Positions 1,863 to 19,825 of a stretch of DNA of 64,000 bases are shown piece after piece. Source of the stretch: Bacillota bacterium (GTDB lineage Bacteria; Bacillota; Clostridia; Christensenellales; SZUA-584). How positions within the stretch are numbered: the stretch's first letter is position 1; each line of letters starts with the position of its first letter. The stretch is from the NCBI GenBank assembly GCA_023436115.1, contig JAEZKQ010000026.1, positions 129,023 to 193,022 of the forward strand, given 5' to 3'. The notes below the pieces were generated by a model. That model was not told where the DNA came from, ran no database searches, and was given only the letters and a program-made list of their open reading frames with translations. Position numbers and translations under genes: made by a program.

Positions 1863-1953
1863 TTTTGCTTCCTCCTTTTTTTAAACTTTTTTGATTTCCA
1901 TGTTGCTTTGACTTGCGGCAACTCCCCCATCCCAGGCCTAAAGGACAGGGAAT

Positions 1954-2253
1954 AAAAAAAGCCCTTCGTCATTACAGAGACGAAAGACTTCGCGTTACCA
2001 CTCTGCTTGCGGCAAATAAGGCCGCCAGCTCATCAGGGTACAACATGATACCCGTCCTCGTGTAACGTTGAGTCACGACGTCTGCACCTACAAAAAGCTT
2101 CGGTACAGCGGCTTCTCCGGAGCGAGCTTCGTCAAACACTGCCTGCCGTCTTTCACCAACGCGACGGCTCTCTGCAAAGCAGGATTTCACTACTGTTCTC
2201 CATCACAGCCTTTATTGTTAATTATTATATGTTCAGCACAAGAACTTTGTCAA
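1954..2253 (-). promoter_or_regulatory. T-box leader with its promoter and terminator, upstream of leuA
   Basis: On the minus strand: -35 TTGACA (2248-2253) and -10 TATAAT (2224-2229). Stem I elements follow: AGAGAG bulge and distal GGTGAAA loop. The T-box sequence AGAGTGGTAACGCGAAG lies at about 1988-2004 and overlaps the 5' arm of a terminator hairpin (about 1961-1988) followed by a U-run (1954-1960). Confidence 0.8.
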
Positions 2254-2272
2254 TAATTAAATTTCAATTAAA

Positions 2273-2304
2273 GAAAAATGGCTATGAAAAAATGCTGTAT
2301 AGCC
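2273..2304 (-). terminator. Intrinsic terminator downstream of the pyrophosphatase gene
   Basis: Minus strand: GGCTAT-loop-ATAGCC hairpin followed by ATTTTTC, 17 nt after the stop at 2321. Confidence 0.5.
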
Positions 2305-2320
2305 TTATTTCTTTACCGTC

Positions 2321-4414: not shown

Positions 4415-4491
4415 ATTGCCTCCTCAAAAAGGATAATCTATATAAACTTAAGTTTATACGCGACAGAATATAAGTGATCAGAACAAGTCGT

Positions 4492-5085
4492 TTATATGTA
4501 TGCGTCATGAACATGCTTTAACACAGCAGCGAGAGAAAACCCCTGTTCTATTTTCCGTGATAAATACTCTTGAGCAATATGGAAGCAATCAAACAATCTT
4601 TTAGCCCGTATAACATCGGAATATACAATCCAGCACCCATTGAGCAAGCCGTGTTTACCTCTGTTCTTGATAAATCCCGTCACATCTGCGACCGGATATC
4701 CTAAGAAAAGTCCGATTTCATGAGGAAATCCTTGGGAGGCAGCCATTCGCAAACTCAGCCGCTCCAACATATCTTCAGATGAAAGCCATCTGGAGTACCC
4801 CATTTTTCCTAATATAAGAGCACGGTCAGCGCATCTTATATCCCTTAACAGCATGCTCTTGTTATAAATATAAAGCCATTGCCGATTTTCATTTTGGTAC
4901 AAAACACGAATAAACAAGCCTCTTGTCTGCCCATAAACGTTAAATTGTTTTATCTGGGTCGAGATGTCGCCATTTTTTGAATTGAATATAAGCAGGGATG
5001 CTGTCTTCAAACCAAGGAGAGTCGGAGCCGCATGCCATGCCAATAACGAGTCCAATAAAGAAATTGATTCTTTCTCTTTCATCAA
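4492..5085 (-). CDS. DUF3793-family protein (function unknown)
   Basis: The N-terminal LLAWHAAPTLLGLKTASLL pattern and overall size resemble the clostridial DUF3793 family. This is recognised from memory, not searched. Confidence 0.55.
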   Translation of the reverse strand: MMKEKESISLLDSLLAWHAAPTLLGLKTASLLIFNSKNGDISTQIKQFNVYGQTRGLFIRVLYQNENRQWLYIYNKSMLLRDIRCADRALILGKMGYSRWLSSEDMLERLSLRMAASQGFPHEIGLFLGYPVADVTGFIKNRGKHGLLNGCWIVYSDVIRAKRLFDCFHIAQEYLSRKIEQGFSLAAVLKHVHDAYI

Positions 5086-5178
5086 AGTTTATTATCTGCA
5101 CATTAATAAAAGCATAGTCATTTTTAATTTATCATTTGGGGCATAATAATAGGAAATATAGATGAAAGGAACACCATT

Positions 5179-5394
5179 ATGAAACGTAAGTTTGAAAGTC
5201 CAAGAGAAGATATTGATGATGATTACACGTCGCTTGATATTGCATCTAGCACCGAATGCACTGGTATGGTGCCATCTCCGCCGCTGGATGAAGCCGAAGT
5301 GGAAGGTTATGCCGATATATACTCAGTTCCCCAAAAGCAAGCAGAAAATGCGCGCGAAATGAAAGTGCGAGGCGGGAAACAAGTGCAAAAATGA
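5179..5394 (+). CDS. Small acidic hypothetical protein (71 aa)
   Basis: An AAGGAA RBS lies about 8 nt upstream and its own hairpin terminator follows 27 nt downstream. No recognisable domain. Confidence 0.45.
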   Translation: MKRKFESPREDIDDDYTSLDIASSTECTGMVPSPPLDEAEVEGYADIYSVPQKQAENAREMKVRGGKQVQK

Positions 5395-5420
5395 TATAAT
5401 AATATTCAATATTTGTATAC

Positions 5421-5447
5421 GGCCGGTTTATCAATCGGCCCTTTTTT
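5421..5447 (+). terminator. Intrinsic terminator
   Basis: GGCCG-loop-CGGCC hairpin followed by CTTTTTT. Confidence 0.6.
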
Positions 5448-5574
5448 CATCTAATTACTTTAAATAAAAAAATCGTTAATCAATGTATATTCGAAAATCC
5501 TTTTTAATGATATAATATAGAATAATTGATTATACGCATTTTTTGCGAGGATTCTTATTTGGAGGAACATATAT

Positions 5575-5859
5575 ATGTCTGATAAAGTCGTTCCCAAAAA
5601 TGTGTTGGAAGAACTGGTGTCATATAAGCTAGATGAGCTCATAAAAATAACAAACTGTTGCAATTGCGACCGCTGCCGAGCTGATGTTTTAGCTATGGCT
5701 CTAAACAAACTCCCTTCTCGGTATGTCGTCAGCTCAAGCGGCGATATCTATACACGTTTTCAGGCTTTGAGCCCTCAAATGCAGGCAAATATCACAACAG
5801 TTCTCATTAACGCCATTGAAGTCGTAAAAAAAGCGCCCCGTCATGATTTAAATAAATAA
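5575..5859 (+). CDS. ComFB-family (late competence development) protein
   Basis: Contains the CCNCDRCRADVLAMALNKLPSRYVV cysteine motif typical of ComFB. RBS is GGAGGAA. Confidence 0.7.
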   Translation: MSDKVVPKNVLEELVSYKLDELIKITNCCNCDRCRADVLAMALNKLPSRYVVSSSGDIYTRFQALSPQMQANITTVLINAIEVVKKAPRHDLNK

Positions 5860-6104
5860 CGATCTATATTAAAAGCAAAGTAAAAGTGATACTTTCTTTA
5901 GCACCACTTTTTTGTTTTGCGAAATCGGCAAGTTATCAAGCTTCTTGCAGTTACAACCCAAATACTATGATTATACTAATCCTATTGTTCCAAACCCTAG
6001 GGGCTTCAGTCACAAAACTGGCACAAATCAAGGCTTCTCATGTTTTGACATTAGTAATTCGTTTTGTATTTACAGTACCTATATATCACATTATATAAAA
6101 TAAC

Positions 6105-6131
6105 AAATATCCCCGGTTAACCGGGATATTT
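6105..6131. terminator. Perfect palindromic hairpin, probable terminator
   Basis: AAATATCCCCGG-TTAA-CCGGGATATTT. On the minus strand it is followed by GTTATTTTAT, so it may close the tail-gene transcript. On the plus strand no clean U-run follows. Confidence 0.45.
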
Positions 6132-6429
6132 CAAACATACGGCTACGCCTATTTCTCTCATAATACCGGCTTAAAATAAGCTTTGTTTCGAACTGATTGA
6201 AACATAACCTCAAATCTATAATACTTCAATGCTATCTACCAACATTCTTACCGATGTTTTAAATTGCTCAATGCCCAAATTCTCCCCCAACAATGATGCA
6301 AAGTATAGTCTATTTCTTTAAATAAAATGTCGTATCTTTTGAATAAATTTTACATATAATATTTGCTAGACTATTAAATCTGCTTTGGAATGTTTTAACC
6401 TTATTGCTGCTCTTTTCTCTGTAATAAGT

Positions 6430-6648
6430 CTATTTAGTAAAAACAGCTGATAAAACTATTTCTTCGCGTGATCCCGCTATTGGTTCCCCCGCATCAAGTC
6501 TGCGTTTTATTTCAGCATCAACGACATTGTCAATTGCGATACGACAGCGTTCATGGACAACATTTTCGATCCATTCTTGAATAGAAAGCACTTCAGTAGA
6601 AAGGGCTTTAGTCTCCACATCCGATAATTCAAAGCCAAAGTGAGCCAT
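6430..6648 (-). CDS. Small phage-module protein (72 aa), last gene of the cluster
   Basis: Good RBS (AAGGAG). Soluble and acidic with no predicted TM segment, so not a holin. It directly follows the C1q-like fibre gene. Confidence 0.5.
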   Translation of the reverse strand: MAHFGFELSDVETKALSTEVLSIQEWIENVVHERCRIAIDNVVDAEIKRRLDAGEPIAGSREEIVLSAVFTK

Positions 6649-6660
6649 ACTTACACTCCT

Positions 6661-7713
6661 TTACCCTAAAAATACTGCCTGAAAAAACAAACAATGATCG
6701 GGATAGTCAGCATTATAACCAGGCGCAGATATTGTTCTGCTGGTAAATAACCATACCTCAAGATAATCCCCTTCCACTAACGGTAACGTAATAACAAATT
6801 CACTCATGGGTATATCTACAGGAGTCATAGCTCCCCCGGAAAACTGCGTTACAATGCCATTTTTTCTTATTCCAATAGCATAACGTTCACCGTTACCGGG
6901 TGTGAACCAATACCCTCCGCACGTAATTAAATAACGACCTGAAACAGGAGCCGTAAATCTATCGGTTGATGCATTCCAGCAATTTGCCGCATCGCTAACT
7001 TTTATAGTGAATCCTCTCACCTTTTGCCACGATGTAACGGAAGTGAACTGTGCCCCTAATTTAACCCATGTAAAAATATTACCTTGGACTCTTAATCTAC
7101 CGTTTACAACAACATCATTTTCAAATTGAACTTTGTCTTTAAATTTTGATTTCAAAAAAACCTGAAGCTCATTAGCATCAGCTTTGCCGCCAATACCCAC
7201 ACCATCATTACCTGGTTTAAAATAAATGGCTCCGAATCGTAAACTTGAATTAATCCTTTCATCAGTAATATCTTCAGAAACTATTTGGACGGCATTTGCA
7301 TTTACGTAGATCTTTGCTAAAACAATTTCAAACACACCGTTATGATTATAAAGAGCAGGTTCTATGGGCGATTTTGATTTTAATCCCTTTTTAATACAAG
7401 CGTAGACACTGCCTTTTTCAGGATCTTTTCGAACCACAACAAGGTCAATTCGTGACAGAGTATCGGCTGCCTCAAGCTGAAGTGTCAAAAGTCCTGTACC
7501 ATTATCACTGACTTTGAATAGATAGCCATCTATTAGTACGACTCCAAAACCAATTTTGATACTCAATCCCTCTCCCGGAGAAACCCGAAGGTTATCACCA
7601 AGCTCCCATATGCCCGATGACACAAATTGGCGGCAATATTCAGCAATTCCATCCGCTCCATAACGTTTGTCAGTCATGGCCCCTTTGAAATACCTTCCTT
7701 CAATTAGCGCCAT
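6661..7713 (-). CDS. Tail fibre / receptor-binding protein paralogue 3 (shared N-terminal anchor domain, C1q/TNF-like C-terminal head)
   Basis: The N-terminus MALIEGRYFKGAMTDKRYGADGIAEYCRQF...DGYLFKV...RID..V.RKD...ITDER aligns by eye with the 8067-9194 and 11277-11882 products. The C-terminus FTAPVSGRYLITCGG...IRKNG...LVEGDYLEVWL...LFFQAVFLG fits a C1q-type jelly-roll signature. RBS is AGGAGG. Confidence 0.65.
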   Translation of the reverse strand: MALIEGRYFKGAMTDKRYGADGIAEYCRQFVSSGIWELGDNLRVSPGEGLSIKIGFGVVLIDGYLFKVSDNGTGLLTLQLEAADTLSRIDLVVVRKDPEKGSVYACIKKGLKSKSPIEPALYNHNGVFEIVLAKIYVNANAVQIVSEDITDERINSSLRFGAIYFKPGNDGVGIGGKADANELQVFLKSKFKDKVQFENDVVVNGRLRVQGNIFTWVKLGAQFTSVTSWQKVRGFTIKVSDAANCWNASTDRFTAPVSGRYLITCGGYWFTPGNGERYAIGIRKNGIVTQFSGGAMTPVDIPMSEFVITLPLVEGDYLEVWLFTSRTISAPGYNADYPDHCLFFQAVFLG

Positions 7714-7722
7714 GTGAACCTC

Positions 7723-8055
7723 CTAACAATCTTGTGCGCCTTCAAAATCCTTAACATATTCTTTTATATATGAATACAACAAGGCGACAATATTTTCCCC
7801 TTTCGATTGCATAATATCGGGAGCAAAGTGATCATCATACACCGAATCATCTTTATATGGTATATTATTATATAAGTCGATTCTCTTTTTTTCAGAATCA
7901 ATTGGGCTGCCGCCGGAAAAGCGTACCGTAGAATTGATATACGGCATAACTTCAATATGTATTTCCTTTTTTATAATATCAATTTCATATTTTGCAATTC
8001 GCCAATATTCCATATCAAATCCATACTGAGATCTGATAGTCTGCTTTAATGCCAT
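7723..8055 (-). CDS. Small phage-module protein (about 110 aa) following fibre paralogue 2
   Basis: The ORF track starts at 8067, but GGAGG lies 5 nt upstream of the ATG at 8055 (MALKQTIRSQ...). No recognisable domain and no TM segment. Confidence 0.5.
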   Translation of the reverse strand: MALKQTIRSQYGFDMEYWRIAKYEIDIIKKEIHIEVMPYINSTVRFSGGSPIDSEKKRIDLYNNIPYKDDSVYDDHFAPDIMQSKGENIVALLYSYIKEYVKDFEGAQDC

Positions 8056-8066
8056 AAAAACCTCCA

Positions 8067-9194
8067 TTAGTGTACAAGATCGTACCAGTTACCCCACCCG
8101 CCATTAGCTTGTCTTCTCCATCTTGGCAAGCCCGCTATGTTGAGTGGAAACGCAATAATGATATTCCAAATGTCATTATGTCTTAACCAAATAAAGTAGT
8201 ACCAATCTCCCGACGGTGCGTTGGGACAACCGGAACCCATATAAAAACCCGTATTTTTATTTGCCAAGCAATCTTGTCCTGATATATTGATACAAGATCC
8301 TTGTCCAAAAGATGGGGAGTTTGCTATTCCCGAACTGTTTGCATAACCTGCGCTCCCTGAACTATTTGAATAATTCGAGCTGTTGGCATAGTTAACCGAA
8401 AAATTTGATGGATTATACACATACATATTCGTACCATCATTTCCACCCCACAGCCAGGATGGCTGACCGCCCTGACCGGACCAATTCCAGTTTTTATTAC
8501 ATGATGCCGATGTTTTTATAAACGATGATTCGTGATATCCATCAAGCTGATCCGCATCCAGCCCGCTGCCAGCACCATCATTTCCTTTGTGCCATATGTT
8601 TCTTATCGATATGCCGCTGTCTTTAAGTTTGTTGCCGTCTGTGCTGTTAAAAACAGATATATTATCGAGGGCAGATATAGATGGGCCTGCAAGACCTATT
8701 TTACTGCTGACAATGCCGCACATTGCTGTATCAGTTCGTTCATCGGTTATATAGGCCATTACGATTTCTGCCGCACCGGCCGGAACAAGTATCCTTGCCA
8801 AGCTGATTTCATAAACCGCATCCGATCTCTCTAAAGCAGGGGGGACTGGGCTTGAAGCCGCAGCACCTTTTTTTATATTGATATCAATATTTTTACTCAC
8901 ACTATCTTTTCGTAAAACAATGCGGTCAATACGTGGTAAATTTTCAGCGTTATCTAATTTAAGTGTTAGTGTATTTACACCATCTTCAGTTACTTTAAAT
9001 AAGTATCCGTCTACCATTGCGGCACCGTAACCCACACTGACATACATTGCGCCATACGGTTTAACCTCAAGATTTGATCCAAACTCCCATACACCTGATG
9101 ATAGGAAGCGTCGGCAATACTCAGCAAGCCCATCCGCCTCGTATCGTTTATCTGTCATGGACCCTTTATAATATCTTCCTTCCAAGAACGCCAT
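8067..9194 (-). CDS. Tail fibre / receptor-binding protein paralogue 2 (shared N-terminal anchor, distinct C-terminal head)
   Basis: It has the same N-terminal domain as 6661-7713. It then carries GNDGAGSGLDADQLDGYHESSF, a fibre collar-type motif, followed by an Asn/Ser/Gly-rich low-complexity segment and a Trp/Cys-rich C-terminal domain. Confidence 0.6.
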   Translation of the reverse strand: MAFLEGRYYKGSMTDKRYEADGLAEYCRRFLSSGVWEFGSNLEVKPYGAMYVSVGYGAAMVDGYLFKVTEDGVNTLTLKLDNAENLPRIDRIVLRKDSVSKNIDINIKKGAAASSPVPPALERSDAVYEISLARILVPAGAAEIVMAYITDERTDTAMCGIVSSKIGLAGPSISALDNISVFNSTDGNKLKDSGISIRNIWHKGNDGAGSGLDADQLDGYHESSFIKTSASCNKNWNWSGQGGQPSWLWGGNDGTNMYVYNPSNFSVNYANSSNYSNSSGSAGYANSSGIANSPSFGQGSCINISGQDCLANKNTGFYMGSGCPNAPSGDWYYFIWLRHNDIWNIIIAFPLNIAGLPRWRRQANGGWGNWYDLVH

Positions 9195-9618
9195 AGATAA
9201 ACCCCTTCATATTACTTACATTTTTTCATAATAGTGCTTACCAACTATAGATATCTTTATGCTATTCTTGTCCATACAAAAACAGCTAGATACGGCAGCA
9301 TATTATTGTATACCTGATTACCGCCCCCGAGTTTATATAGTCCGCATCTTCCAGATTCAGGTTGCTTAAGGAAGTATCATTGACGATAGAACGAAGCAAA
9401 CCTGAGCGCCGGAGTGATCTGTTTTGGGCCTGACGGCAAAGGCCTTGGTATTATTTTTTTTACTCTCTGGACTACCAACTGGAATATGGAACTCATTTTG
9501 CCCAGAATATTTGGCAAACCTTAGGCTATAGACCAATATGCCGGGCGGTGGTTCGGAGTCAATAGACAATCCGTATTATGGATATCTTATCAATATCTTC
9601 TAAGTGCTATTAATGTTT

Positions 9619-11277
9619 CTAGACTTGTTTGACTATATCTCTAAGCTGCTCAATTGCCTGTCTCAGCTTAACCCGGTTCACACCGCCGCCTATCACTGAC
9701 GGGTTTATCCATGCCACACTGATATCAGAATTGCTATTGCTCGTGTCCCATCCGTTTATGCGGTCAATTACGCCCTGTAATGCGGTTTGCATTTCTGTGA
9801 TGAATACCGCATTACCAATCTTTGAGGCTCCAGCATGACACGCTGTCCATGAGACCGCATCCAGCCCATAAGCCGCCCTTAAGTTCCCTATGGCTACTTG
9901 CAGGCTGCTTATATGTACCGCCTTAATCTTCATGCCCGGAATTGTGAGATCACCATCTTCGGGTACAAATGCCAGCACATTAAATGAACGGATTACATCA
10001 GAAGAATAGAGATACGAATCATACATCCTGGACTTGATGTTTACAGTTCCGGCTGTCAATTCAGACAACGGCTGATAGACGACTTTCTGACCTGATGCCA
10101 AATTGGCATTCGCTCCGCACGAGAAACCCGATACCGTTGCCGTCGTCTTCTCGGAGCCATCATTTAAGCACAGAATATGTTTTGGCCCGTCATTCGTTGT
10201 CCCTGCTGCAAGTAAAATATGCGGTCGCTTATTGTATACTTTGCTCCCAGCAGCAGGAAAGCTGATTTCAGGTGAATTTGGTGTAGTATTCAGCGTTACC
10301 ACAGTGGTGAAAGAAGACCATGGGCTCCTTATTCCATAGGCATCATAGCTGCGAACGCGGAATCGGCGTTGTATGCCCTGAGGCCACCCGCTTGTGTTCA
10401 CATCAACAAATGTAGCAGCGCCGGAAGCAGAGTTTCCCACAATCGTCTCGTTTTGGTCTGTCGCCGCTTCAAAGCCCACAAGATTATTGTCGGGATCGCC
10501 GGTGTTAGCAAACGATACACGGATGATATCGCCGGGAATATAAGATGTTTTAGGTACCCCCGGACTTGTCGGCTGATTGGGAATACGGTTCTTAGTCACA
10601 GCATTGGACCAGCCAGACCAAGGATTATCACCGCGCTGCGTCACCGCCATAACATAAAAATCAACGATCGTACCTCTTCCCCATCCTGATACATCGGGCG
10701 TCCAGCTTGTCGTATTACCCACATCAGCTAAATTCTCACCGCCATAATTGATCCTGTAATAGACACGATAAGTCTGTATGGCGTTATTGACACCCACTGA
10801 AGCCGGCCCCCACGAAAATGTCACTCTGTTTTCGTATGGATTGGGAGATAGCGAAGGACTATATGGCGCACCGGCACGTGTCCAGTAAAGCGACCATCCA
10901 AAACCGAATTCCGTACAATAATTTCTGTTTGTCCAAATACAAGACTCCGTACCGGAAGTGCTCGTCTGTATATACAGATTCCATCCTCCTGAAAGCGTTG
11001 TTCCCACATCAAACGCAATAACAAATGAGCCACTATACGTTTGACTGGAAGACCATGCCTGCGAATTTTTTATTATTCCGCTGCCCAGTAATACACCATC
11101 GCTCCGATAAATATATAATGTTCTGTTGTTTGAGGAGCTTGAGCCATTACTCGTCCCACTGCCTAATTTGACAGACCAGTCAACACGTGCAGTCACAGCG
11201 TTGCCCGAACGACCAACTTCATAAACATTGACCGTCATCGTCGTATTTGACGTTGTGTTGCTTCTAAATGTTGGCAT
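9619..11277 (-). CDS. Tail/baseplate peripheral protein with fibronectin type III-like repeats
   Basis: 552 aa. Repeated about 90-aa segments show FN3-like patterns (e.g. RVTFSWGPA...YRVYYR...W..W). The start overlaps the upstream stop as TAATG. Confidence 0.55.
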   Translation of the reverse strand: MPTFRSNTTSNTTMTVNVYEVGRSGNAVTARVDWSVKLGSGTSNGSSSSNNRTLYIYRSDGVLLGSGIIKNSQAWSSSQTYSGSFVIAFDVGTTLSGGWNLYIQTSTSGTESCIWTNRNYCTEFGFGWSLYWTRAGAPYSPSLSPNPYENRVTFSWGPASVGVNNAIQTYRVYYRINYGGENLADVGNTTSWTPDVSGWGRGTIVDFYVMAVTQRGDNPWSGWSNAVTKNRIPNQPTSPGVPKTSYIPGDIIRVSFANTGDPDNNLVGFEAATDQNETIVGNSASGAATFVDVNTSGWPQGIQRRFRVRSYDAYGIRSPWSSFTTVVTLNTTPNSPEISFPAAGSKVYNKRPHILLAAGTTNDGPKHILCLNDGSEKTTATVSGFSCGANANLASGQKVVYQPLSELTAGTVNIKSRMYDSYLYSSDVIRSFNVLAFVPEDGDLTIPGMKIKAVHISSLQVAIGNLRAAYGLDAVSWTACHAGASKIGNAVFITEMQTALQGVIDRINGWDTSNSNSDISVAWINPSVIGGGVNRVKLRQAIEQLRDIVKQV

Positions 11278-11882
11278 TATTGATACACCGCCCCAATCAC
11301 CTTGTTGGCTGTCACTTCGTTAAATGTCGGACTGTCTGAGGTCTTAACTCCCTGATCAATATGATTCCTCACTGAAATAGGCTCAATTAAGCCACACACG
11401 CTGTTGTCTGTCCTCTCATCAATGACCTTATCAACCGCAATGCTCTGTACACCTGGTTCAACTCTTATTTTTGCGAGCGACAGTTCATAGATGTTGCCTT
11501 CCCGTGTCAATACCGGCGCAACCGGGTTTCCCGATGCTTCTCCGTTTTTCACCAAAAGGTTAATTGAGCGTCCGGCAACACTCTTGTCTAGCCGCAAAAC
11601 AACCCTGTCGATACGACTTAATGACTGGTGTGGCTCAACGATAGCCATTGCTTTCAAACCACTCTCATCATCCCTCAGCCAATATCCGTAACCTTGCACA
11701 ACAGCGGCACCAAAATTCACATTGACAAACATGCCTGTTCCCGGTGCCGTTACAGCAAGATTTGTTCCCATAACGGGAACTCCATCCGTTAAAAATGTAC
11801 GGAAAAACTCCGCAAAATCGTCTGCCTGGTACTCTCGGTTATCATCTGCATAATCAAAAAAACGGCTCTCTTCCAATGCCAT
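11277..11882 (-). CDS. Fibre anchor-domain protein (paralogue 1; N-terminal domain only, 201 aa)
   Basis: MALEESRFFDYADDNREYQADDFAEFFRTFLTDGV...QGYGYWL...RIDRVVLRLD...VIDERTD aligns with the N-termini of the 375-aa and 350-aa proteins. It has TAATG overlaps with both neighbours. Confidence 0.6.
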   Translation of the reverse strand: MALEESRFFDYADDNREYQADDFAEFFRTFLTDGVPVMGTNLAVTAPGTGMFVNVNFGAAVVQGYGYWLRDDESGLKAMAIVEPHQSLSRIDRVVLRLDKSVAGRSINLLVKNGEASGNPVAPVLTREGNIYELSLAKIRVEPGVQSIAVDKVIDERTDNSVCGLIEPISVRNHIDQGVKTSDSPTFNEVTANKVIGAVYQ

Positions 11883-13015
11883 TATCGAACAACTCCTATC
11901 TTTCTAATTTCATCAAGCGCATTTTTGTTGCGCTTTCCAAACGTAGGTTTAATATCGGTTTTTCCCTTTTCGTATACTTCTTTCACTTCGGTTATCTGTA
12001 CATCAAGTTCAACCCCAGATTTTTGGCTCTGTATTGTTACATAATCCCCGAGTTCCCAGTCTTTCTGGTATGTAAACGGACCGGCCGTCACAACATCCCC
12101 CGTCAAGCCTCTAATTCGTGCTTTGTCCTTGAGCTTATACTTGCCTTCATAAAGCAGATCATTAATCATCTCAACACTACCACAATCCAGCCATGTTTCA
12201 CGTCTTTCAAAGCCTGTTCGTGTCACGTCATTTTCATAAACCGTATGTATTAAACGCCCTTCATTCTCTCCGGCACCGCCTGCATATCCTGTATTCAGCC
12301 ATTGATTGATATCCTCTGAATACTTTATTCCGGATACATTTCCCCAGGCAGGTGCGAAAATAACCGGAGAACCACCACCCGCCGTATGATCATTTCCCTC
12401 AATCACATCAAAAACAAAACACTCGTTTTCCAAGTCTAGTCTTATCTCGTATCCTATACCGGTTAGTTCGCCGATGTCCTTAAACACAGTACTGAGCGGC
12501 TCAAATCTGCTCTGCCATCTCAATCCCTGACCACGCATCCGATCGTCAGCTAGAGTCAGCCTTGGAAACACTCTGTCCGTATTATCCGGACTAACCATAT
12601 GTCGGTCTACGTAATGCTTAATCACACTCTCAGCCGGTTTGTCTGGTTCGTTTACTCCAGGAAAGCGGTCATAGCCAAAATATTGTGTATCCTCAAGCTG
12701 ACCGGGAACTGTCAGCCGCAACAGGCAAAGGCATTTGAGTTCCTTGCCTTTTGCAATCACTTCAGTACCATTGTTGTTTTCCTGCACCTCATAATAATCC
12801 ACAATGCCAGCTCTGCGTCTATCAAGAAATACAATGGATTCAGGAGTGAGCTTGTTTGCATCACGGTGGTTTAAATCAATGTGTATTTCAAAAGTACCAA
12901 CTTCCCAGAGTTTTCGTGTCCACTGAATGCTTGAAGCGTTGTCAATGTATGCAAGCGGTGTAAAGCTGGTGTCCATCACTCTCAATACCGCCACGATCAC
13001 ACACCTCCAAACCAC
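11882..13015 (-). CDS. Tail-associated (Tal-like / siphovirus Gp37-like) baseplate hub protein
   Basis: The position immediately after Dit and the size (about 365-377 aa) fit a Tal N-terminal-type protein. No lysin domain was recognised. The start is uncertain: GTG 13015, GTG 12994 or ATG 12976. Confidence 0.5.
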   Translation of the reverse strand: MVWRCVIVAVLRVMDTSFTPLAYIDNASSIQWTRKLWEVGTFEIHIDLNHRDANKLTPESIVFLDRRRAGIVDYYEVQENNNGTEVIAKGKELKCLCLLRLTVPGQLEDTQYFGYDRFPGVNEPDKPAESVIKHYVDRHMVSPDNTDRVFPRLTLADDRMRGQGLRWQSRFEPLSTVFKDIGELTGIGYEIRLDLENECFVFDVIEGNDHTAGGGSPVIFAPAWGNVSGIKYSEDINQWLNTGYAGGAGENEGRLIHTVYENDVTRTGFERRETWLDCGSVEMINDLLYEGKYKLKDKARIRGLTGDVVTAGPFTYQKDWELGDYVTIQSQKSGVELDVQITEVKEVYEKGKTDIKPTFGKRNKNALDEIRKIGVVR

Positions 13016-13866
13016 GGCGTAGTCGATATACTGATTAGAGATGTTTGACTGTCATCACCCGATAGATATTGAAGACGGTTCTCACCCGGATCCAGCATGA
13101 ATAATGTACTACTTAAATCAATATAACCTATCGCCGTTTCCACAATGCCGCCCGTACGTCTTATTGTCACTCTTGGATTGCCCGGTGTCGTATCAATGTG
13201 CAAGATGTCTCCCTCGTACAATTCACGCTTAACTCGAATGTATTCACCGGTACGGATTTTCAATATTTCCGGCTGCGATGATGGCCCGGATATTTCAATT
13301 TGCATAGCCGCCGGACTATCTCCACGGTTCCATATTGACGTTTTATACCCGCGCGCACCAAACCGGACCTGGCCAAGCCTTAACGGAAATCGCAAACCGC
13401 CGCCCAGATATGCCATACTCGCCCGTTCACTAATCATACCGCGCCAGTACGGATTAGGGCAGTAAAACACCAGTTGATCGCTTTTCAAATAATTAGCAAT
13501 ACGTGAACTTCCCTGCGGCCCGCGTTTCACCACCGCCGGTATCCACCATGTCCCAAAATCATTTGTATACTCAAGCCGACCCATATCTCCGTCCCTGTTG
13601 AGTACCGGGCTTAAAATTGAAATGAGCTTTAGCTTATTTTCATACATTTCTTTTCTCGTTGAGCCTTTGATATTGACAGTCAGCGTAATCTCTCTGGCAT
13701 CAATATAAAGGCCGTTAAATGAACTTCCGTCCAGCTGTGCCGGCTCCGATTTCATGATCTGTACATCTTCCGTCCCGATACCGCTGATTTTTTCCAAAAT
13801 AAAAGGCGGGGCTTTAGAAAACACCACCTCTTTACCTTTTGGGTTAATATACCTGACTCTTTGCAT
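12997..13866 (-). CDS. Distal tail protein (Dit; Sipho_tail family-like)
   Basis: 289 aa directly downstream of the tape measure gene. The N-terminal pattern resembles phage tail family proteins. RBS is GGAGGTGG. Confidence 0.6.
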   Translation of the reverse strand: MQRVRYINPKGKEVVFSKAPPFILEKISGIGTEDVQIMKSEPAQLDGSSFNGLYIDAREITLTVNIKGSTRKEMYENKLKLISILSPVLNRDGDMGRLEYTNDFGTWWIPAVVKRGPQGSSRIANYLKSDQLVFYCPNPYWRGMISERASMAYLGGGLRFPLRLGQVRFGARGYKTSIWNRGDSPAAMQIEISGPSSQPEILKIRTGEYIRVKRELYEGDILHIDTTPGNPRVTIRRTGGIVETAIGYIDLSSTLFMLDPGENRLQYLSGDDSQTSLISISTTPWFGGV

Positions 13867-13881
13867 TCATTCCACCTCCTG

Positions 13882-16800
13882 TCACATCTGCGAAATTTGT
13901 TCCAGCAGTCGTTCCAGCTCACGTCTTATCTCAGCCGGGCTTTGCGTGGTCTCAGTAAAGTAAAGATTCAGTGTAGGTCCCACATTCGTCACCGGGCCTG
14001 TCGGTGCAGGAGACTCTTGAGCTGTCGGGTAACCATGTACCGAATAATACTGTTCAGCCGCTGTTGTAGCGACATGTGCAAGCTCTTGTTGATAAGTCGT
14101 CAAGCTAGATGTCAGGCTGGCAAACCACGCTTCAATATCACCCACCCGGCTCATAAACCCGTCAACAAGCTGATCGCCCAACGTCTGCCCTGTCGCGTTG
14201 TACTCAGGTGCAAATTCCTTAAGCAGATTGATGATATCTGTCTGTCCACTTTGCATCAGCATCTTCTGCGCCTCAGCCCGCAGGTTCTGTTCTTTTTCCA
14301 ACTCTTCATAGTAAGCGTTATTAGCATCGATCTTATCCTGAAGCTTTTCCTGCTCGGTTTTTACCGTTTCATTCACAGCATCAATCTGTTTTTGCAAATC
14401 AGCTTTCAGAGCATCACGCTCCTTCTGAACAAGCCAGTCGTCTAGCTCCTTTTGCGATTTTACGATTTCTTCCTGTAGTTTTCTCCGGTTATAGACATCC
14501 TGCTCATAAAGCAGTTGCTGTTCCAGCATAGCGATCTTGCGGCGTTTTTTGGCTTCTTCCTCCGCATCACTTTCCTGCTTTGTGAGTTCATCCAGCGCAT
14601 CAATTTGGCGCTGTATCGCTGCTACCTGTTCATCGCCCCATGTCTGCCATGCATCGATAGAATCGTTGAGCGTCTTTTCTTCCATCTCACGCTGCGCTTC
14701 ATACCGTTCTTGCAATGCGGATACGATGGCGTCAGAAAGTCCGTTCAACCGATCAATATTCTGCTGTCTTATCGTCTGTTGAAGGTCATAAAGCTCCTTC
14801 TCCAGATCAATTCTATCCTGAACGCCTTCCTTATAAGACGCTATCATTTTCTTGAGTTGGGCTTCCTGCTCCGCCAGCGTCATCTGTCCATAATAAACTT
14901 TTAGGTCATATTCCTGACGCTCCAGCTCTCTTGCAGCCTCGTATCGCTCCTTTTCAAGATCACGCCTCGCTGTCGTTCCTTCTTTATAGGAGGCAATCAT
15001 CTTGTCCATAGCTGCAATCTCTTCACGCAGTGTCAGCTGATCCATGGCCTTTTGGTATTCAAGCTCTTCCTCGGCAAGCTGCTTTCTGAGCTCATATAGC
15101 TTTTCCGTCAGTTCACGCTTTTCATCAGTCGTCTTGGCATACTTGGCCAATATACGCTCAAGATTGGCGATCTCTTCTGCCGTTGTCACCTGACCCATCG
15201 CTTTATTATGCTCCAGCAGTTCTTTCTCACGTTCAAGCGCTTTGTTCTTTTTGGCGCCACCGCCGCCGCCCCCACCGCCGCCGGTTAATTTGGACCCAAA
15301 CGGGCTTTTGTTGTTAAACGTAACTTTTCCATCACTGGATACATTAGCTGACGGTATACTGTACATGGCTATCATCGCGTCAATAGCAGATTTGGTGACA
15401 TCATCAGCACCAGCTCTCAAGTTTTGCAACTGTGCAACCATAGAGGACGCATCCCCAGTGAATTCCACTCCTACAAATTGTCCGAGTGTTTGCAATAATG
15501 AGCTGTAATAATCCTCTTCGTCCGAAATGGCATCTGCAATCAACCCCGAATTACTCTCAATATCACTGGCAGATACTCCAAATTGCTCCGCAAGATAATT
15601 TAAAGCCTCAGTATATTGATCAGACGCGTCAGCACCTTGCTCAACAATACTTAAAGCAGACTTTGATTTCCCCAAGTCCCCCATAGATTTGCTGATATCG
15701 CCAATAGCTTTGGTGGCATTCTTTCCGCCGCTTGCCAAATCTTCAAAAACTGCATCTGCTTTTTTAATGTTTTGCGTTTCTCGCTTTGATGATTTACCAA
15801 CAACTTCGATCTTTTCTCTTGTTTCATCGAGTGCATTGTTAAGGTTAGTCTTTAAAACCTTTTTTAGACTTTCGCTAGCTGCATTCATCCCATCAACACT
15901 GTTAATGGCCGCCTCAAGCGCAGCTTCATAGTTCAATAAAGCTCCCGCCCCTCCCTCGTCGGCTGCAGCAGCGGCTTCTTCCAAATTACCGAACACATCA
16001 GAAATCGCAAACCCCGAAAGATCAAATCCTGAAAACAGTTCATTAATTTGTGCCTTTTTATCAGCTATCGATGTGGTGTTACTATCAATCGTTGTAATTG
16101 CATCTTGAAGTATCAACTGAAGCGACGTATTCATTTGAGCGCCGCTGGAATTCAGAGAATCAACTATACCAGAAAGCATATCTATCTCACCTAAGCCACT
16201 GCCTTCACCAGCAGCGAACATAGAAAGCAATTGTTCTCTTATGGCCTCTCCAGTTGGAAGATCGGCCTTTGAAACAACAGAATCTAGATTGGTATAAGCA
16301 TCAAAGACTTTTTGAGCTGCAGCTGCTGCCTCTTCAGCCGTACTTTCACCGTTAAATGCTTCATCCATCTTTAATTTCATGACTTGTTGAAGTGCTATTG
16401 GAACATCCTGACCACGGTTTCGTATTTTTAAAACCATCTGATTAAACAGATTATCTAAAGCAACCTGGCCTTCAGCTTTGGCATCTTCGATACCCGCCAT
16501 AGCCTTATCGAGATTTTCCTGCCAGACACTTATTGTATACTGCATATCTTCCATAGCCTGAGAATCTGGGGCAGCATCTTTATACTGATCACCAAAAACT
16601 ATGGTAGGATCTTCTATTCTGCTTTTCCAGTAATCTTGATCATTTTCAAAACCTTTTATTTTATTGACAGAATTATTGACAGTATTTTTCTCAGCGGCTT
16701 CATTTTCTCGCATTTTACTCAACATCAGTTGTTCCGATAATGCAAGCTGCTCTTTCATGGTATCAAGATTGCCTGCAAGCAGCCTTCCTTCTTCGTCAAT

Positions 16801-17736
16801 AGCTCCCACTGAAAAACCATATGTCTCTACCAATTCGGCGCGTATATTATTCATGCGTTGCATATCTTCAGCGGTCTTGATCACTTTCTGACTGAGCATA
16901 TCATATTCTGATACCAGACTGCCAGCACCCGTATTATTTTCCCTTAGCGAATCGATCTCCTTACGGTTGTCCTCAAGTTTCTTTTTGGCTTCGGCTTCCG
17001 CTTGTGCAATGGCGTTAACCACTGCCATAATCACAGTAAAAATTATACCGACAACACCCAGTGCTGTATTCAAAGTGGAGCCCATGACAGCACCTGCTTG
17101 CCCCGCCGCCTGAAAAGCGGGTATTAGGTTCAGCACCTGTGCCCCGATCGATAGTATCTGTTCAGTCACACCGCCGGTTGCTTTTCCTACGGTCGTCATC
17201 AATGATGTTATCGCAGTTAATGTCGCCTTCGAGCTTTCTGCTTTCTTTTTTGAATCATCGTTTGAATTTGATTCCGAAGTTGCATTCACCTTCGCTACTG
17301 CTACCTGCCCCTGCTCAGCTTTAAGCGCGCTGAGAGAGCTTCTTGCTGCATTTACCGAATCAGCAAGGGCAATATATTGCGCATCATTTACTTCTTCGCC
17401 AGCGCCCAATGAAGCCTTATACGCTTCAAGCTTGGTCTGAGCCTCCTCCAAAACAGCTGTCTGTCTTCGAATACTCTCTTCCAGCTTCACAAACTCACTA
17501 CTTAATTCATCAAGCGACATACCCTTATATTTGTTACTCATTTCCGCCGATGCGGCGCTCACTTGAGCTATTACACCTAATAGGGTATCTTTTGTAAGAT
17601 TCGCCCCCTGTTCCATAGCTGCGTGTATTGTTAAAAACGCTTGAGTAATCTGACGTGCAGCCGCTGTTGCCATTTGGACAACAGTGTCCAGTCCCGCAAC
17701 CTTTACATTTATAATTAAATCTACTTTTTCGCTCAT
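13882..17736 (-). CDS. Tail tape measure protein (1284 aa)
   Basis: Very long alpha-helical, coiled-coil-rich protein. It has hydrophobic segments (GVVGIIFTVIMAVVNAIA), a Gly9 linker and three 51-aa tandem repeats. It sits after the G/GT chaperone pair. Confidence 0.85.
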   Translation of the reverse strand: MSEKVDLIINVKVAGLDTVVQMATAAARQITQAFLTIHAAMEQGANLTKDTLLGVIAQVSAASAEMSNKYKGMSLDELSSEFVKLEESIRRQTAVLEEAQTKLEAYKASLGAGEEVNDAQYIALADSVNAARSSLSALKAEQGQVAVAKVNATSESNSNDDSKKKAESSKATLTAITSLMTTVGKATGGVTEQILSIGAQVLNLIPAFQAAGQAGAVMGSTLNTALGVVGIIFTVIMAVVNAIAQAEAEAKKKLEDNRKEIDSLRENNTGAGSLVSEYDMLSQKVIKTAEDMQRMNNIRAELVETYGFSVGAIDEEGRLLAGNLDTMKEQLALSEQLMLSKMRENEAAEKNTVNNSVNKIKGFENDQDYWKSRIEDPTIVFGDQYKDAAPDSQAMEDMQYTISVWQENLDKAMAGIEDAKAEGQVALDNLFNQMVLKIRNRGQDVPIALQQVMKLKMDEAFNGESTAEEAAAAAQKVFDAYTNLDSVVSKADLPTGEAIREQLLSMFAAGEGSGLGEIDMLSGIVDSLNSSGAQMNTSLQLILQDAITTIDSNTTSIADKKAQINELFSGFDLSGFAISDVFGNLEEAAAAADEGGAGALLNYEAALEAAINSVDGMNAASESLKKVLKTNLNNALDETREKIEVVGKSSKRETQNIKKADAVFEDLASGGKNATKAIGDISKSMGDLGKSKSALSIVEQGADASDQYTEALNYLAEQFGVSASDIESNSGLIADAISDEEDYYSSLLQTLGQFVGVEFTGDASSMVAQLQNLRAGADDVTKSAIDAMIAMYSIPSANVSSDGKVTFNNKSPFGSKLTGGGGGGGGGAKKNKALEREKELLEHNKAMGQVTTAEEIANLERILAKYAKTTDEKRELTEKLYELRKQLAEEELEYQKAMDQLTLREEIAAMDKMIASYKEGTTARRDLEKERYEAARELERQEYDLKVYYGQMTLAEQEAQLKKMIASYKEGVQDRIDLEKELYDLQQTIRQQNIDRLNGLSDAIVSALQERYEAQREMEEKTLNDSIDAWQTWGDEQVAAIQRQIDALDELTKQESDAEEEAKKRRKIAMLEQQLLYEQDVYNRRKLQEEIVKSQKELDDWLVQKERDALKADLQKQIDAVNETVKTEQEKLQDKIDANNAYYEELEKEQNLRAEAQKMLMQSGQTDIINLLKEFAPEYNATGQTLGDQLVDGFMSRVGDIEAWFASLTSSLTTYQQELAHVATTAAEQYYSVHGYPTAQESPAPTGPVTNVGPTLNLYFTETTQSPAEIRRELERLLEQISQM
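14758..15216 (-). repeat. Three tandem 153-nt (51-aa) repeats inside the tape measure gene
   Basis: The three units begin LEHNKAMGQVTTAEEIANLERILAKYAKTT..., LEYQKAMDQLTLREEIAAMDKMIASYKEGT... and YDLKVYYGQMTLAEQEAQLKKMIASYKEGV.... Coordinates were derived by counting codons from the start. Confidence 0.7.
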
Positions 17737-17889
17737 GTCCGGCCCTCCTTCATGAAAAAAAGCGGCACTAAGGTCGCTTTTTCTTAAAACCGGTATTTAT
17801 ATATCATTAACGGCAAACGCTTATTGTCCGCTGTTGCGCCGCCGATACAATTGAGGTCTCTGGTATTGTGATTGTTCCACCTGTGTTGC

Positions 17890-18491
17890 TTACCACTCAT
17901 CTGCAGAGACCTCTGTGGTCATTTCCTTCTTATCAAAGCTATGCATCTCATTATAAGCATCCAGCACGGTTAGAAACTCATCAAAATAATAGTCGTTTAA
18001 GAGAGCTGCTTTCCCAATACCGATGCTTTCGGCGATGGCGATCCATTTTTGGAGCCAGTAATCAGTGCCGGAAGCTTCGCCTTTATCAGTCCCGACACGG
18101 TTTCGAAAAAATCCGTCATATCATTCATCGCCCAGAATTCTTTAACGACATCACAGAATTCCTTTGGTGTGAGCGTGTTTTTTATAACGTCCTTATCAAC
18201 GTCGAGTATCAGTGATATGGTGCTCACCACATACTCGGGCGCAATCATGAAAAGACGCGTCAGAATACGAATCAGCGATTCCTCTGTCAGCGCCGTGAGC
18301 TCACTCATGATGTCCGAAATTTTCTTCCCGGGAAAAAGTTCGTTCACGATTGCACCTGGCAATTCTTCAAGCTCTCGCATTGCCGACAAGTATTTTCCGA
18401 CCGGGACTTTCTTGACTTCAATACCATGTACTACCCTTTCTTTAGGCAGTGTAATATTTGTGCTTTTACTCTTAAAATCAAATAAAGACAT
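17890..18491 (-). CDS. Predicted -1 frameshift product of the tail assembly chaperone (gpGT-like, about 200 aa)
   Basis: The slippery heptamer T TTT TTC sits in frame 0 (GAT TTT TTC; plus-strand 18105-18111). The -1 frame is open from there through the frame-0 stop for 71 codons, to TAA at 17890-17892. Confidence 0.55.
17997..18491 (-). CDS. Tail assembly chaperone (gpG-like, 164 aa)
   Basis: It lies between the major tail and tape measure genes. ATG at 18491 is preceded by GAGGAGGAA. The longer track ORF (to 18620) would overlap the major tail gene. Confidence 0.65.
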   Translation of the reverse strand: MSLFDFKSKSTNITLPKERVVHGIEVKKVPVGKYLSAMRELEELPGAIVNELFPGKKISDIMSELTALTEESLIRILTRLFMIAPEYVVSTISLILDVDKDVIKNTLTPKEFCDVVKEFWAMNDMTDFFETVSGLIKAKLPALITGSKNGSPSPKASVLGKQLS

Positions 18492-18537
18492 AGCTTCCTC
18501 CTCGATGGTTCTTTTCCGATAAATGGAGAAGAGGGTA

Positions 18538-19113
18538 TTAACCCTCTCCACCGCCGGTTTCAGCAATCTGATCAATTGTATCCAACCAGGTATACGTTTT
18601 GTCAGTGCTGTCCTTCTCAATTCTTACCGCCCCGTCCGCTGCACGTTGTGTCGAGCGGAATGTCAGGGTGTAAGCCGCGATTTCATTGGCTTCGCCTTTT
18701 GTCGCATGATCCACCTTAACAGACATTAGTCTCACGCAGTAATGCTTGAACATACGATACTGCCCGTCAGAACGAAGCGCTGCATACGCAAACGCAAATT
18801 CAGGGGCCACATCAGCGCTCTTAAATACATACGTTTTCTCTGTCTCGCTGTAAGTTCCGCCGGCCAGCTTCGCCTCAATTTCTAGCGGCAATCCCGCGAT
18901 CGTGAAAGTCAGGTCCTCGTACTGGTAGTCGGAACCCGAATCATACACGGCATCGTCAGCGTAAATGGTATATTCACTTCGGCTGACTTCTTTTGTGAGA
19001 TTCTGCGCACCTGAAAGCGGAATCATTGTACCGGTCGAATATACGGTCGTTGAGTTAACTGTAATCGGCCATGTACGTGCTGCGCAAAAGCCTTTCAATG
19101 CAATCTTGTCCAT
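18538..19113 (-). CDS. Major tail (tube) protein, phi13/TP901-1-like
   Basis: 191 aa, positioned upstream of the chaperone pair. The sequence pattern (..YADDAVYDS.....LTFTIAGLPLE...) resembles Firmicute siphovirus major tail proteins. Confidence 0.6.
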   Translation of the reverse strand: MDKIALKGFCAARTWPITVNSTTVYSTGTMIPLSGAQNLTKEVSRSEYTIYADDAVYDSGSDYQYEDLTFTIAGLPLEIEAKLAGGTYSETEKTYVFKSADVAPEFAFAYAALRSDGQYRMFKHYCVRLMSVKVDHATKGEANEIAAYTLTFRSTQRAADGAVRIEKDSTDKTYTWLDTIDQIAETGGGEG

Positions 19114-19128
19114 CTATTATTTTCCTTT

Positions 19129-19512
19129 CTATAATATGTCCTCGCCCCAAAACGAGAACTCAAAATAATAAACCGTTCTTCCTGATTCATCCACCGAAAG
19201 CTTGCACGGATGACTTCGTATGCGTCCGATGCCCCAACGCGTATCAGTCAAATGGATGATGTTTTCGTCCGGCCCGCTGTCAATATGAGTTGCCATCTGT
19301 GAAGCCAGCACATAAGCGTCCTCTGCATTCGCCGCCCTCACCTGAACCTTTATATAACGCGTGGCAGATCCGTCGGCAATCATGGATCCTTTATGTTCTG
19401 TCACGAAAAGGCCCACCGCTTGATCCGGAGTCCCGGGTAAAACGTCTTTGCCGATATTCTCATATCCTTTGCTTTCCAAATACGTTTTAAGGTCTTCCAA
19501 AAAAATGGCCAT
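19129..19512 (-). CDS. Tail terminator-like / head-tail joining protein (first gene of the module)
   Basis: 127 aa immediately upstream of the major tail gene, which is the canonical slot for the tail terminator. RBS is AAGGAG. The assignment rests on position and size only. Confidence 0.4.
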   Translation of the reverse strand: MAIFLEDLKTYLESKGYENIGKDVLPGTPDQAVGLFVTEHKGSMIADGSATRYIKVQVRAANAEDAYVLASQMATHIDSGPDENIIHLTDTRWGIGRIRSHPCKLSVDESGRTVYYFEFSFWGEDIL

Positions 19513-19619
19513 CTGCTTATCTCCTTACTTGGTGTTTAAAAAAATCATTTACTTTGTTATTGTCATTATCCTATGAAGAGTCGCTCAACTTCGCTCAATC
19601 TCTCTTTTCTAACGGAAAC

Positions 19620-19642
19620 AAAAAACCGCTCAAAACGAACGG
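19620..19642 (-). terminator. Intrinsic terminator (second of two downstream of the tRNA operon)
   Basis: Minus-strand RNA reads CCGUUC-GUUUU-GAGCGG followed by UUUUUU. Confidence 0.5.
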
Positions 19643-19724
19643 CTCATCTTTTTATATTTGGATCATAATTTATTACTCAACTCATAATCACTCAGTATTA
19701 AAAATTAATTGTATTTTTGGACAT

Positions 19725-19749
19725 AAAAAAACCGCCTTATCGGCGGTTT
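19725..19749 (-). terminator. Intrinsic terminator immediately after tRNA-Lys
   Basis: Minus strand: AAAACCGCC-GATAA-GGCGGTTTTTTT, starting directly after the encoded CCA end. Confidence 0.75.
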
Positions 19750-19825
19750 TGGTGGGCCACCAGGGGCTCGAACCCTGGACAACACGATTAAGAGTCGCGT
19801 ACTCTACCAACTGAGTTAGTGGCCC
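19750..19825 (-). tRNA. tRNA-Lys (anticodon CTT), CCA encoded
   Basis: Hand-folded cloverleaf: acceptor GGGCCAC/GTGGCCC, anticodon stem CGCGA/TCGTG, loop CTCTTAA, T-arm CAGGG-TTCGAGC-CCCTG. 76 nt. Confidence 0.85.

Follow-up and report, generated by a model that had tools for sequence, protein, structure and literature searches.

A head-less siphovirus-type tail cassette next to a tRNA-Lys gene in a Clostridia genome: a candidate F-type tailocin without its own regulator and lysis genes

Is a set of siphovirus tail genes devoid of head genes a killing device retained by its host, or what is left of a prophage? The question is raised by a locus of a Bacillota bacterium (Clostridia, Christensenellales, SZUA-584; assembly GCA_023436115.1), lying in a stretch of 64,000 nucleotides of contig JAEZKQ010000026.1 (positions 129,023 to 193,022 of the forward strand), denominated here the window. 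ORF listing, translation, and Pfam and PHROG scans reveal at positions 6430-19512, on the minus strand, 12 intact open reading frames (ORFs) in the same direction, which begin at the gene of the tail terminator, or cap, and end with the fibres. The initial annotation had seen here a complete non-contractile tail set, terminator to fibres, and a candidate F-type tailocin or domesticated tail system. The tail set is indeed present over this interval. The tailocin proposal holds for structural completeness, but has to accommodate the origin of the cassette, a deletion derivative of an ordinary prophage, and the lack of regulator and lysis genes. The reading that we favour, at even confidence, is that of a tail cassette which selection has retained and which is competent for structure but not autonomous; it would be a candidate F-type tailocin reliant on factors encoded elsewhere.

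The cassette opens with the tail terminator gene at 19129-19512. The encoded 127-aa protein matches PF12691 (7.7e-9) and phrog_2595, and is 38-51% identical to the terminators of relatives; no word-sharing homologue was found among 5.8 billion proteins. The major tail (tube) protein gene is at 18538-19113 (191 aa; phrog_88, 3e-24), and its homologues are 60-75% identical, some being named phi13-family major tail protein. The chaperone G is encoded at 17997-18494, and is extended into a GT fusion (17890-18494) by a -1 frameshift. The slippery site T TTT TTC is located at 18111-18105, about 100 nt ahead of the G stop, and the T extension read from the -1 frame is 73 aa long and ends at 17890. 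A usable G/GT slippery site had been proposed before, without coordinates; the TTTTTTC heptamer recurs in 9/9 relatives checked, and so does the peptide read from the -1 frame. A GGGAAAG heptamer near the end of G was also considered as frameshift site, and rejected because TTTTTTC is the conserved one.

The tape measure protein (TMP) is encoded at 13882-17736 (1284 aa; phrog_1533, 6.4e-40), the distal tail protein Dit at 12997-13866 (289 aa; PF22768, 1.3e-12; PF05709, 3e-7; phrog_33), and the baseplate hub, or Tal, at 11882-12994 (370 aa; PF14594 Sipho_Gp37, 6.8e-68; phrog_538, 1e-76). The best homologues of the hub are 67% identical. The 201-aa protein encoded at 11277-11882 (phrog_5339, 5e-51) is made of the shared fibre N-terminal (anchor) domain alone; homologues of 202-209 aa, 54-70% identical, are found in the related loci L094, L098 and L013, with size and position kept. 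The 552-aa product of ORF 9619-11277 is a peripheral baseplate protein with FN3-like repeats. Pfam and PHROG scans gave no match for it, and a match to the FN3 of neogenin is weak (E=0.01); homologues at the same position are 63-66% identical, and one has a weak PF00041 match. Fibre paralogue B (8067-9194, 375 aa; phrog_5339, 6e-40) combines the shared N-terminal domain with a C-terminal part of its own, and matches tail-fibre PHROGs over residues 160-275. Fibre paralogue C (6661-7713, 350 aa; phrog_27282, 1e-29) is likely the receptor-binding protein. The 201-, 375- and 350-aa paralogues have one N-terminal domain in common (phrog_5339/1220, 1e-26 to 5e-51), which is labelled 'head protein' in PHROGs, yet is found at a fibre position, as in phiCD6356. 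The 114-aa ORF interposed between the fibre genes (7723-8067) has no family match in Pfam and PHROG, is open in both strains compared below, and judged from position alone is possibly a fibre assembly factor. The last ORF (6430-6648, 72 aa) has no family match either, and is not a holin because, by eye, a transmembrane segment is missing. No sheath-like ORF occurs in the cassette, and PDB sequence searches with hub and fibre C gave no match.

As deduced from sequence, the gene set is structurally complete, and ranges from cap, tube, G and GT, through tape measure, Dit and hub, to baseplate proteins and fibres, of which two or three are alternatives. It matches the structural set ftbF-ftbP of monocin, which starts at the terminator cap FtbF and ends with the receptor-binding protein (RBP) (PMC11830787). 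The monocin order (cap, tube, two chaperones, tape measure, Dit, hub, side-fibre proteins, RBP) is the same in the window, and both systems are Firmicute, siphovirus-derived, non-contractile and capsid-less, with structural sets starting at the terminator gene. Monocin has been made from ftbD-ftbP alone in Lactococcus (PMC11830787). As all the monocin structural counterparts are present, assembly competence of the cassette may be reasonably assumed. The likeness is one of gene content and order, and the ancestries differ, monocin being TP901-1-like and the cassette phiCD6356-like. Five regulatory genes and a holin-lysin cassette are part of the monocin cluster, and neither is found in the window; the monocin TMP measures 622 aa (103-nm particle), that of the window 1284 aa. 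The function of monocin, in contrast to that of the window cassette, which is known from genes alone, has been demonstrated.

Head, packaging, integrase, repressor or other regulator, holin and lysin genes had been reported as missing from the cassette, and none occurs anywhere in the 64-kb window. Relics of head, lysis and control genes were sought in the window by tblastx with seven related phage loci and by tblastn with the regulators, repressor and holin of the relatives, and none was found; outside the cassette, the seven loci gave short noise matches alone. Packaging, head, replication, lysogeny and lysis, functions of an autonomous lytic cycle, are all absent from the window, as are the capsid and terminase genes expected in a gene transfer agent or a PBSX-type defective phage. 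A complete non-contractile tail set, with no capsid, portal, terminase or replication genes in the window, is a feature shared with F-type tailocins. In the absence of its own regulator, holin and endolysin, the cassette would be unable to induce or release itself.

The origin of the cassette emerges from comparison with phages. Megablast against phages gave no match. At the protein level, Tal is about 31% identical to those of phiCD6356 and Paenibacillus larvae phages, in which the genes follow the same order. Uncultured relatives come nearer, at 45-75% amino acid identity overall (Tal 54-67%, tube up to 75%). In the loci L094, L098, L099, L129, L133, L136, L011, L012, L013 and L103, scaffold, major capsid, head-tail adaptor and Neck1-type genes are found directly before the terminator gene, terminase and portal genes being located further upstream in L133 and L136. 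In the loci of the relatives reaching past the fibres, an endolysin gene comes next, with or without a holin gene. Homology of the window to these relatives sets in precisely with the ATG of the terminator gene, and does not extend into the 215 bp before it. Deletion from an ordinary temperate siphovirus therefore gave rise to the cassette, which clearly stems from a prophage lineage, not from an anciently conserved system. In neighbour-joining (NJ) trees of five proteins, the window copy is next to L094 and L098, and the cassette genes are nested within functional phages of the same lineage, as are those of cryptic prophages. The phiCD6356-like siphoviruses and the uncultured relatives (L094, L098, L099, L129, L133) share with the window gene order, homologous proteins and the TTTTTTC G/GT frameshift. 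They differ because terminase, portal, scaffold, capsid and four connector genes are present upstream, and endolysin, with or without holin, downstream; all of these are missing from the window copy, as is the Neck1/tail-completion gene preceding the terminator gene in relatives. The late genes of the relatives are associated with phrog_36/DUF1492-like sigma-type activators, or with Mor and NusG-like antiterminators, encoded just upstream of the structural genes. Dockerin-domain proteins (PF00404, 116-122 aa) are encoded among the fibre genes of L099 (12208-12561), L129 (12163-12513) and L135 (18115-18483), which suggests that the tails of these relatives bind cohesin-bearing (cellulosomal) cell surfaces.

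Four other chromosomal head-less modules of the same lineage have been found at unrelated host loci. All are made of the same protein families, and start, as in the window, at the terminator gene or shortly before it. One is hosted by four human-gut assemblies (L115, L117, L118 and L120). In L117 the locus (1647-15633) is compact and tailocin-like, spans about 13.5 kb without head genes, and is organized as smpB, tmRNA, a phrog_36 regulator, terminator and tail genes, an Amidase_3-SPOR lysin and host genes; the tail order is terminator, tube, G, TMP (1077 aa), Dit, hub and three fibres. Upstream genes are different in L120, which has no tmRNA, and the tmRNA context is read in L117. Insertion at a small-RNA gene is a feature that one head-less relative has in common with the window copy, located at a tRNA. 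In L131/L127, host genes are followed by a phrog_36 regulator, three promoter-like repeats, Neck1, terminator and tail genes, a PG_binding_1 protein and again host genes. The three direct repeats of L131 (8540-9095) are about 55 bp long (…AAACTTCGGCGATTATCGGCGATCTTTCGTGATA[T/A]AGTG…), are located in the interval separating the sigma-like regulator from the first tail gene, and resemble an activator-dependent late promoter/leader unit present in three copies; at least two have a clear terminator-like hairpin 60-80 nt further on. In L116, atpD-atpC and then a DUF1492/sigma-r4-like regulator precede the tail genes, which run from terminator to fibres and are followed by an S24 repressor and a Hol44 holin. 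Multiple frameshifts interrupting the L116 tail genes were considered as signs of decay, and rejected. The essential atpD (L116 24-1630) and other genes of the same contig (VOFE01002273, 578 kb) are split by frameshifts, which points to an error-prone long-read assembly. L135, finally, features butyrate-pathway genes, an S24 repressor, Mor, a NusG-like antiterminator, a scaffold stump, a 5'-truncated terminator gene, tail genes and an SH3/PG_binding lysin. The S24/HTH repressor, Mor-type activator and NusG-like antiterminator (5747-9980) are found directly before the stump, which is 61% identical over 49 aa to the L099 scaffold, and the terminator gene is short of about 12 codons at the N-terminal end. 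Deletion of a head module is clearly captured here; in the complete phage L136, NusG is followed by terminase.

The head-less copies do not form a single tailocin clade, a possibility that was rejected because they are not monophyletic. In the NJ trees of the five proteins they never fall in one clade, and each groups with head-bearing phages. Heads have therefore been lost independently at least five times in this lineage, in about 15 contexts examined. The four relatives share a tailocin-like architecture of regulator, tail genes and lysin or holin. A late regulator (either phrog_36/DUF1492-like, or an S24 repressor accompanied by Mor and NusG) is present in all of them, together with a lysin or a holin. 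By contrast, the window copy is the only one of the five with neither.

Whether the cassette is under selection was assessed by comparing two strains, the second one (GCA_023441705.1 / ERZ28599624) being 99.5-99.8% identical. The initial annotation had counted thirteen intact ORFs and invoked purifying selection. Twelve ORFs are intact, 12/12 in both strains. The thirteenth (9366-9569, 67 aa) is probably spurious, and falls in a non-coding gap of 424 bp (9195-9618, minus strand) matching in tblastx the fibre end of L012. The gap retains the last ~25 codons of a tail-collar-type fibre C-terminus (…GGGNQVYNNMLPYLAVFVWTRIA*), and is a pseudogene fragment. Three indels distinguish the strains in the interval 5860-19727 (130 bp at 6110, 1 bp at 9461, 5 bp at 9522). 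All three map in the non-coding 10.5% (1.46 kb) of the region (P ~0.001), and neither frameshifts nor stops occur in 12.3 kb of coding DNA. In the 424 bp of the fibre relic, 5 substitutions and 2 indels have accumulated, whereas the two adjacent genes differ by 8 substitutions over 2787 bp (P=0.02); relic divergence is 4-7x that of the coding parts (Fisher P=0.02 and 0.001). Excluding fibre C, 8 synonymous and 10 non-synonymous changes were scored in the cassette, for an omega of about 0.36 (P=0.03 vs neutrality); the ratio of non-synonymous to synonymous changes differs from the neutral expectation at P=0.001 if fibre C is included. Fibre C is a hot spot of strain divergence, hosting 19 of the 37 coding differences, with a dS of 4.2% vs 0.3% elsewhere in the cassette, and the G+C content of the fibre B/C region is 37-39% vs ~46%. 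The receptor-binding end may have been recently replaced by recombinational import, and in this the gene resembles tailocin and phage fibre loci. Altogether, the two-strain data offer a modest argument, at the sequence level, against free decay and for moderate purifying selection, below the level of core genes.

The following history may be proposed. The tail-morphogenesis module of a phiCD6356-like temperate siphovirus would have stayed beside the tRNA-Lys gene after losses on both sides had removed all other genes, those for integrase, lysogeny, replication, packaging, head and connector at one end and the lysis cassette at the opposite end. The deletion boundary would fall exactly at the terminator ATG, provided with a fresh Shine-Dalgarno (SD) sequence. 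On transcription, driven by a putative promoter in the leader or by a late activator or antiterminator acting in trans, capped, head-less, flexible tails would assemble. Their length may be about 190-210 nm, as scaled from the lambda-type 0.15 nm per residue or from the 103 nm per 622 residues of monocin. Such particles would act as an F-type tailocin, with the variable distal fibre setting the target range, and would depend for release on lysis functions encoded elsewhere, for example by another prophage, or on autolysis.

Several observations weigh against this reading. Regulator, holin and endolysin genes are absent within 6 kb on one side and 44 kb on the other, so that the regulator, own or adjacent, and the lysis cassette of F-type tailocins are both missing in the window; their absence is explained at least as easily by further decay as by a new design. 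A fibre gene has already decayed at 9195-9618, and because of this relic the cassette is not wholly decay-free. Constraint is weaker than in flanking host genes (omega 0.09 vs 0.36 in the cassette), omega values rest on 18-37 substitutions, and low divergence, exemplified by a tape measure gene in which 0/3855 nt differ, could in part reflect recent recombination between strains and not constraint. The cassette has been seen in one species-level lineage, in two strains ~99.5% identical. Two intrinsic terminators separate the tRNA operon from the first gene, the one promoter proposed is a guess at consensus level, and scanning showed no excess over shuffled sequence.

According to a different view, the locus is an inert, fairly young prophage remnant. 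Two illegitimate deletions would have spared the tail module, which would be silent and functionless, still intact for lack of time, and bound to decay. This is a real, if lesser, possibility. The absence of regulator, lysis gene, integrase and att repeat, the terminators directly upstream of the first gene, the decayed fibre gene, the occurrence in two near-identical strains only and an omega 4x that of host genes all fit with it, and L135, with its scaffold stump and 5'-truncated terminator gene, illustrates how messy the origin by deletion can be. It accounts less well for coding DNA free of frameshifts and stops next to non-coding DNA in which three indels accumulated, for an N:S ratio under the neutral expectation, for the preservation of both frames at the G/GT overlap, and for a boundary set exactly at a start codon with a good SD. 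Tail-only remnants in at least five independent lineages are also hard to obtain from random decay alone. Purifying selection, as originally invoked, finds modest backing in the intact ORFs and the omega of 0.36, and has to be toned down for a constraint below that of host genes and for the lost fibre.

Control of the cassette may be sought in the leader, an AT-rich tract of 215 bp (19513-19727, minus strand) between the tRNA-Lys gene and the first gene, which starts 215 bp past the tRNA. A sigma-70-like element read from the sequence, TTGAGT (19680-19675) and TATAAA (19656-19651) spaced by 18 nt, is directly followed by a hairpin and a T-run at 19645-19623, and the SD AAGGAG is located 8 nt ahead of the terminator-gene ATG. 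At consensus level, promoter and attenuator roles may be assigned to these elements, and the layout recalls a late promoter with a terminator needing read-through. The fold of the leader is no better than that of shuffles (z=0.07), and in Rfam searches the tRNAs alone were matched. Sequence similarity to the regulatory regions of relatives was not found in the leader, and the non-coding flanks match nothing. A likeness of the 19645-19623 hairpin to the L131 hairpins was dismissed as generic terminator resemblance.

Such a leader would suit a helper-dependent cassette, reliant on a related phage, resident or superinfecting, whose late activator or antiterminator would switch it on in trans and whose lysis would release it. 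The tails might join helper heads, with consequences on host range, or compete with helper tails and cut the phage yield, in a defence-like manner. The late activators and antiterminators encoded just upstream of the late genes of relatives lend some appeal to this scenario, as do the promoter-like element and terminator hairpin before the first gene, which suit antitermination control, and the retention of the tail terminator, through which a tail joins a head. The scenario is purely inferential, and we deem it improbable. Neither a cognate regulator nor a helper phage is known for the genome, the leader is dissimilar from the regulatory regions of the relatives, and the Neck1/tail-completion gene is missing. 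A slim chance is likewise given to a broader picture, in which the cassette is a tail-only satellite lacking regulator and lysis genes, kept because a related phage activates and releases it in trans, which switches the host range of this helper or poisons its assembly, and the Sipho_Gp37/phi13-MTP lineage is a hot spot of conversion of Clostridia prophages into F-type tailocins.

That the locus is an assembly or window artefact, hiding an ordinary complete prophage with contiguous head genes, is very unlikely because both junctions recur across assemblies: contigs of other assemblies do break in the tRNA cluster, and the link of the cassette to icd crosses repeated tRNA sequence, but three independent assemblies place the whole tRNA-Lys and part of a tRNA-Gly directly before the terminator gene, the tRNA-Lys/terminator-gene junction is base-identical in GCA_023441705.1 and Logan SRR13358386, the distal end runs unbroken into comFB, DUF3793 and hppA in three assemblies, and no head-gene relic occurs within 64 kb.

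The flanks agree with the initial annotation. On the terminator-gene side are found the tRNA-Leu/Gly/Gly/Lys genes, a SEC-C protein gene, icd, gpmI, tpi and pgk; on the fibre side a convergent comFB, then DUF3793, hppA and leuA. The tRNA-Lys(CTT) gene (19750-19825, minus strand; ARAGORN, Rfam) is the last of the Leu-Gly-Gly-Lys cluster, and marks the host boundary, being also the probable ancestral integration target. The cassette adjoins the 3' end of this tRNA, but with neither an integrase nor a flanking repeat: no duplication suggestive of att sites was detected by repeat search of 4.4-20.3 kb, nor by searching the window with the tRNA-Lys 3' end. The distal flank (5860-6429), non-coding up to the convergent comFB, includes neither a lysis-gene relic nor an attR. 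It hosts the 130-bp strain-specific indel (6110-6239), which includes the CCCGGTTAACCGGG hairpin, and 7 substitutions clustered at 6008-6018. Genome contigs were also scanned with the SEC-C protein. Homologues are at most 60% identical (Acetivibrio mesophilus, Clostridia metagenome-assembled genomes), none was found with tail genes, and gene order is kept no further than icd-SEC-C, in three loci. The remaining 44 kb of the window are housekeeping DNA (SecA, prfB, yabP/yabQ, PFOR, ilv/leu and glycogen genes). A 71-aa, highly acidic ORF with no family match (5179-5394) lies between DUF3793 and comFB, and is called as a gene in three assemblies. Two LeuA/HMGL-type synthase genes, unrelated to the cassette, are found at 345-1862 and 46382-47941; the latter, inside the ilv/leu operon, is more divergent, and may encode a citramalate synthase.

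The favoured reading, a retained tail cassette acting as F-type tailocin, has to be set against the systems already described. The F-type pyocins of Pseudomonas aeruginosa are similarly encoded by a head-less siphovirus-type cluster, in which variable distal fibres set specificity. They have a lambda-like ancestry and a Gram-negative host. The F-pyocin cluster depends on regulators (PrtN/PrtR) and lysis genes outside its structural block; shared regulators and lysis cassette are adjacent, in the R-pyocin region, whereas nothing comparable is found within 6 kb on one side and 44 kb on the other of the window cassette. A precedent is offered by P. chlororaphis, in which tailocin structural clusters share a lysis cassette encoded outside them. 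To our knowledge, regulator and lysis functions are kept in every characterised tailocin. That tailocins had multiple independent origins is an accepted idea.

Two further systems, compared by description, come from Firmicutes. The efagin of Enterococcus faecalis (2025-2026 preprints) is encoded by 14.6 kb, a size near to the 13 kb of the window cassette, forms 160-nm particles, and has been found unbroken in every high-quality E. faecalis genome examined; it has regulatory and lysis-associated genes, the window none. F-type tailocin particles of Clostridium histolyticum have been seen by cryo-EM and mass spectrometry (2026 preprint), and differ from the window cassette, known from genes in two strains, in having been physically observed. 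Monocin, efagin and the C. histolyticum particles already represent F-type tailocins in Firmicutes, and the window cassette is not a new kind. An F-type tailocin in Clostridia is likewise no novelty after the description of the C. histolyticum particles. More interesting as a by-product are the independent head-less relatives, above all the compact tmRNA-side locus in human-gut contigs.

Outside Pseudomonas, known F-type tailocins are few, those of Gram-positives being limited to monocin, efagin and the C. histolyticum particle. If inert, the cassette is simply a well-preserved prophage fragment. If functional, it and its four better-equipped head-less relatives would form a natural series that goes from complete prophage to regulator, tail and lysin and then to a bare tail cassette, and bears on the birth and loss of tailocins; the bare cassette would test whether tailocins persist without their own control and release genes. 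Should the cassette and its four relatives all be functional, uncultured Clostridia of gut and digesters would repeatedly turn siphovirus prophages into strain-specific killing particles.

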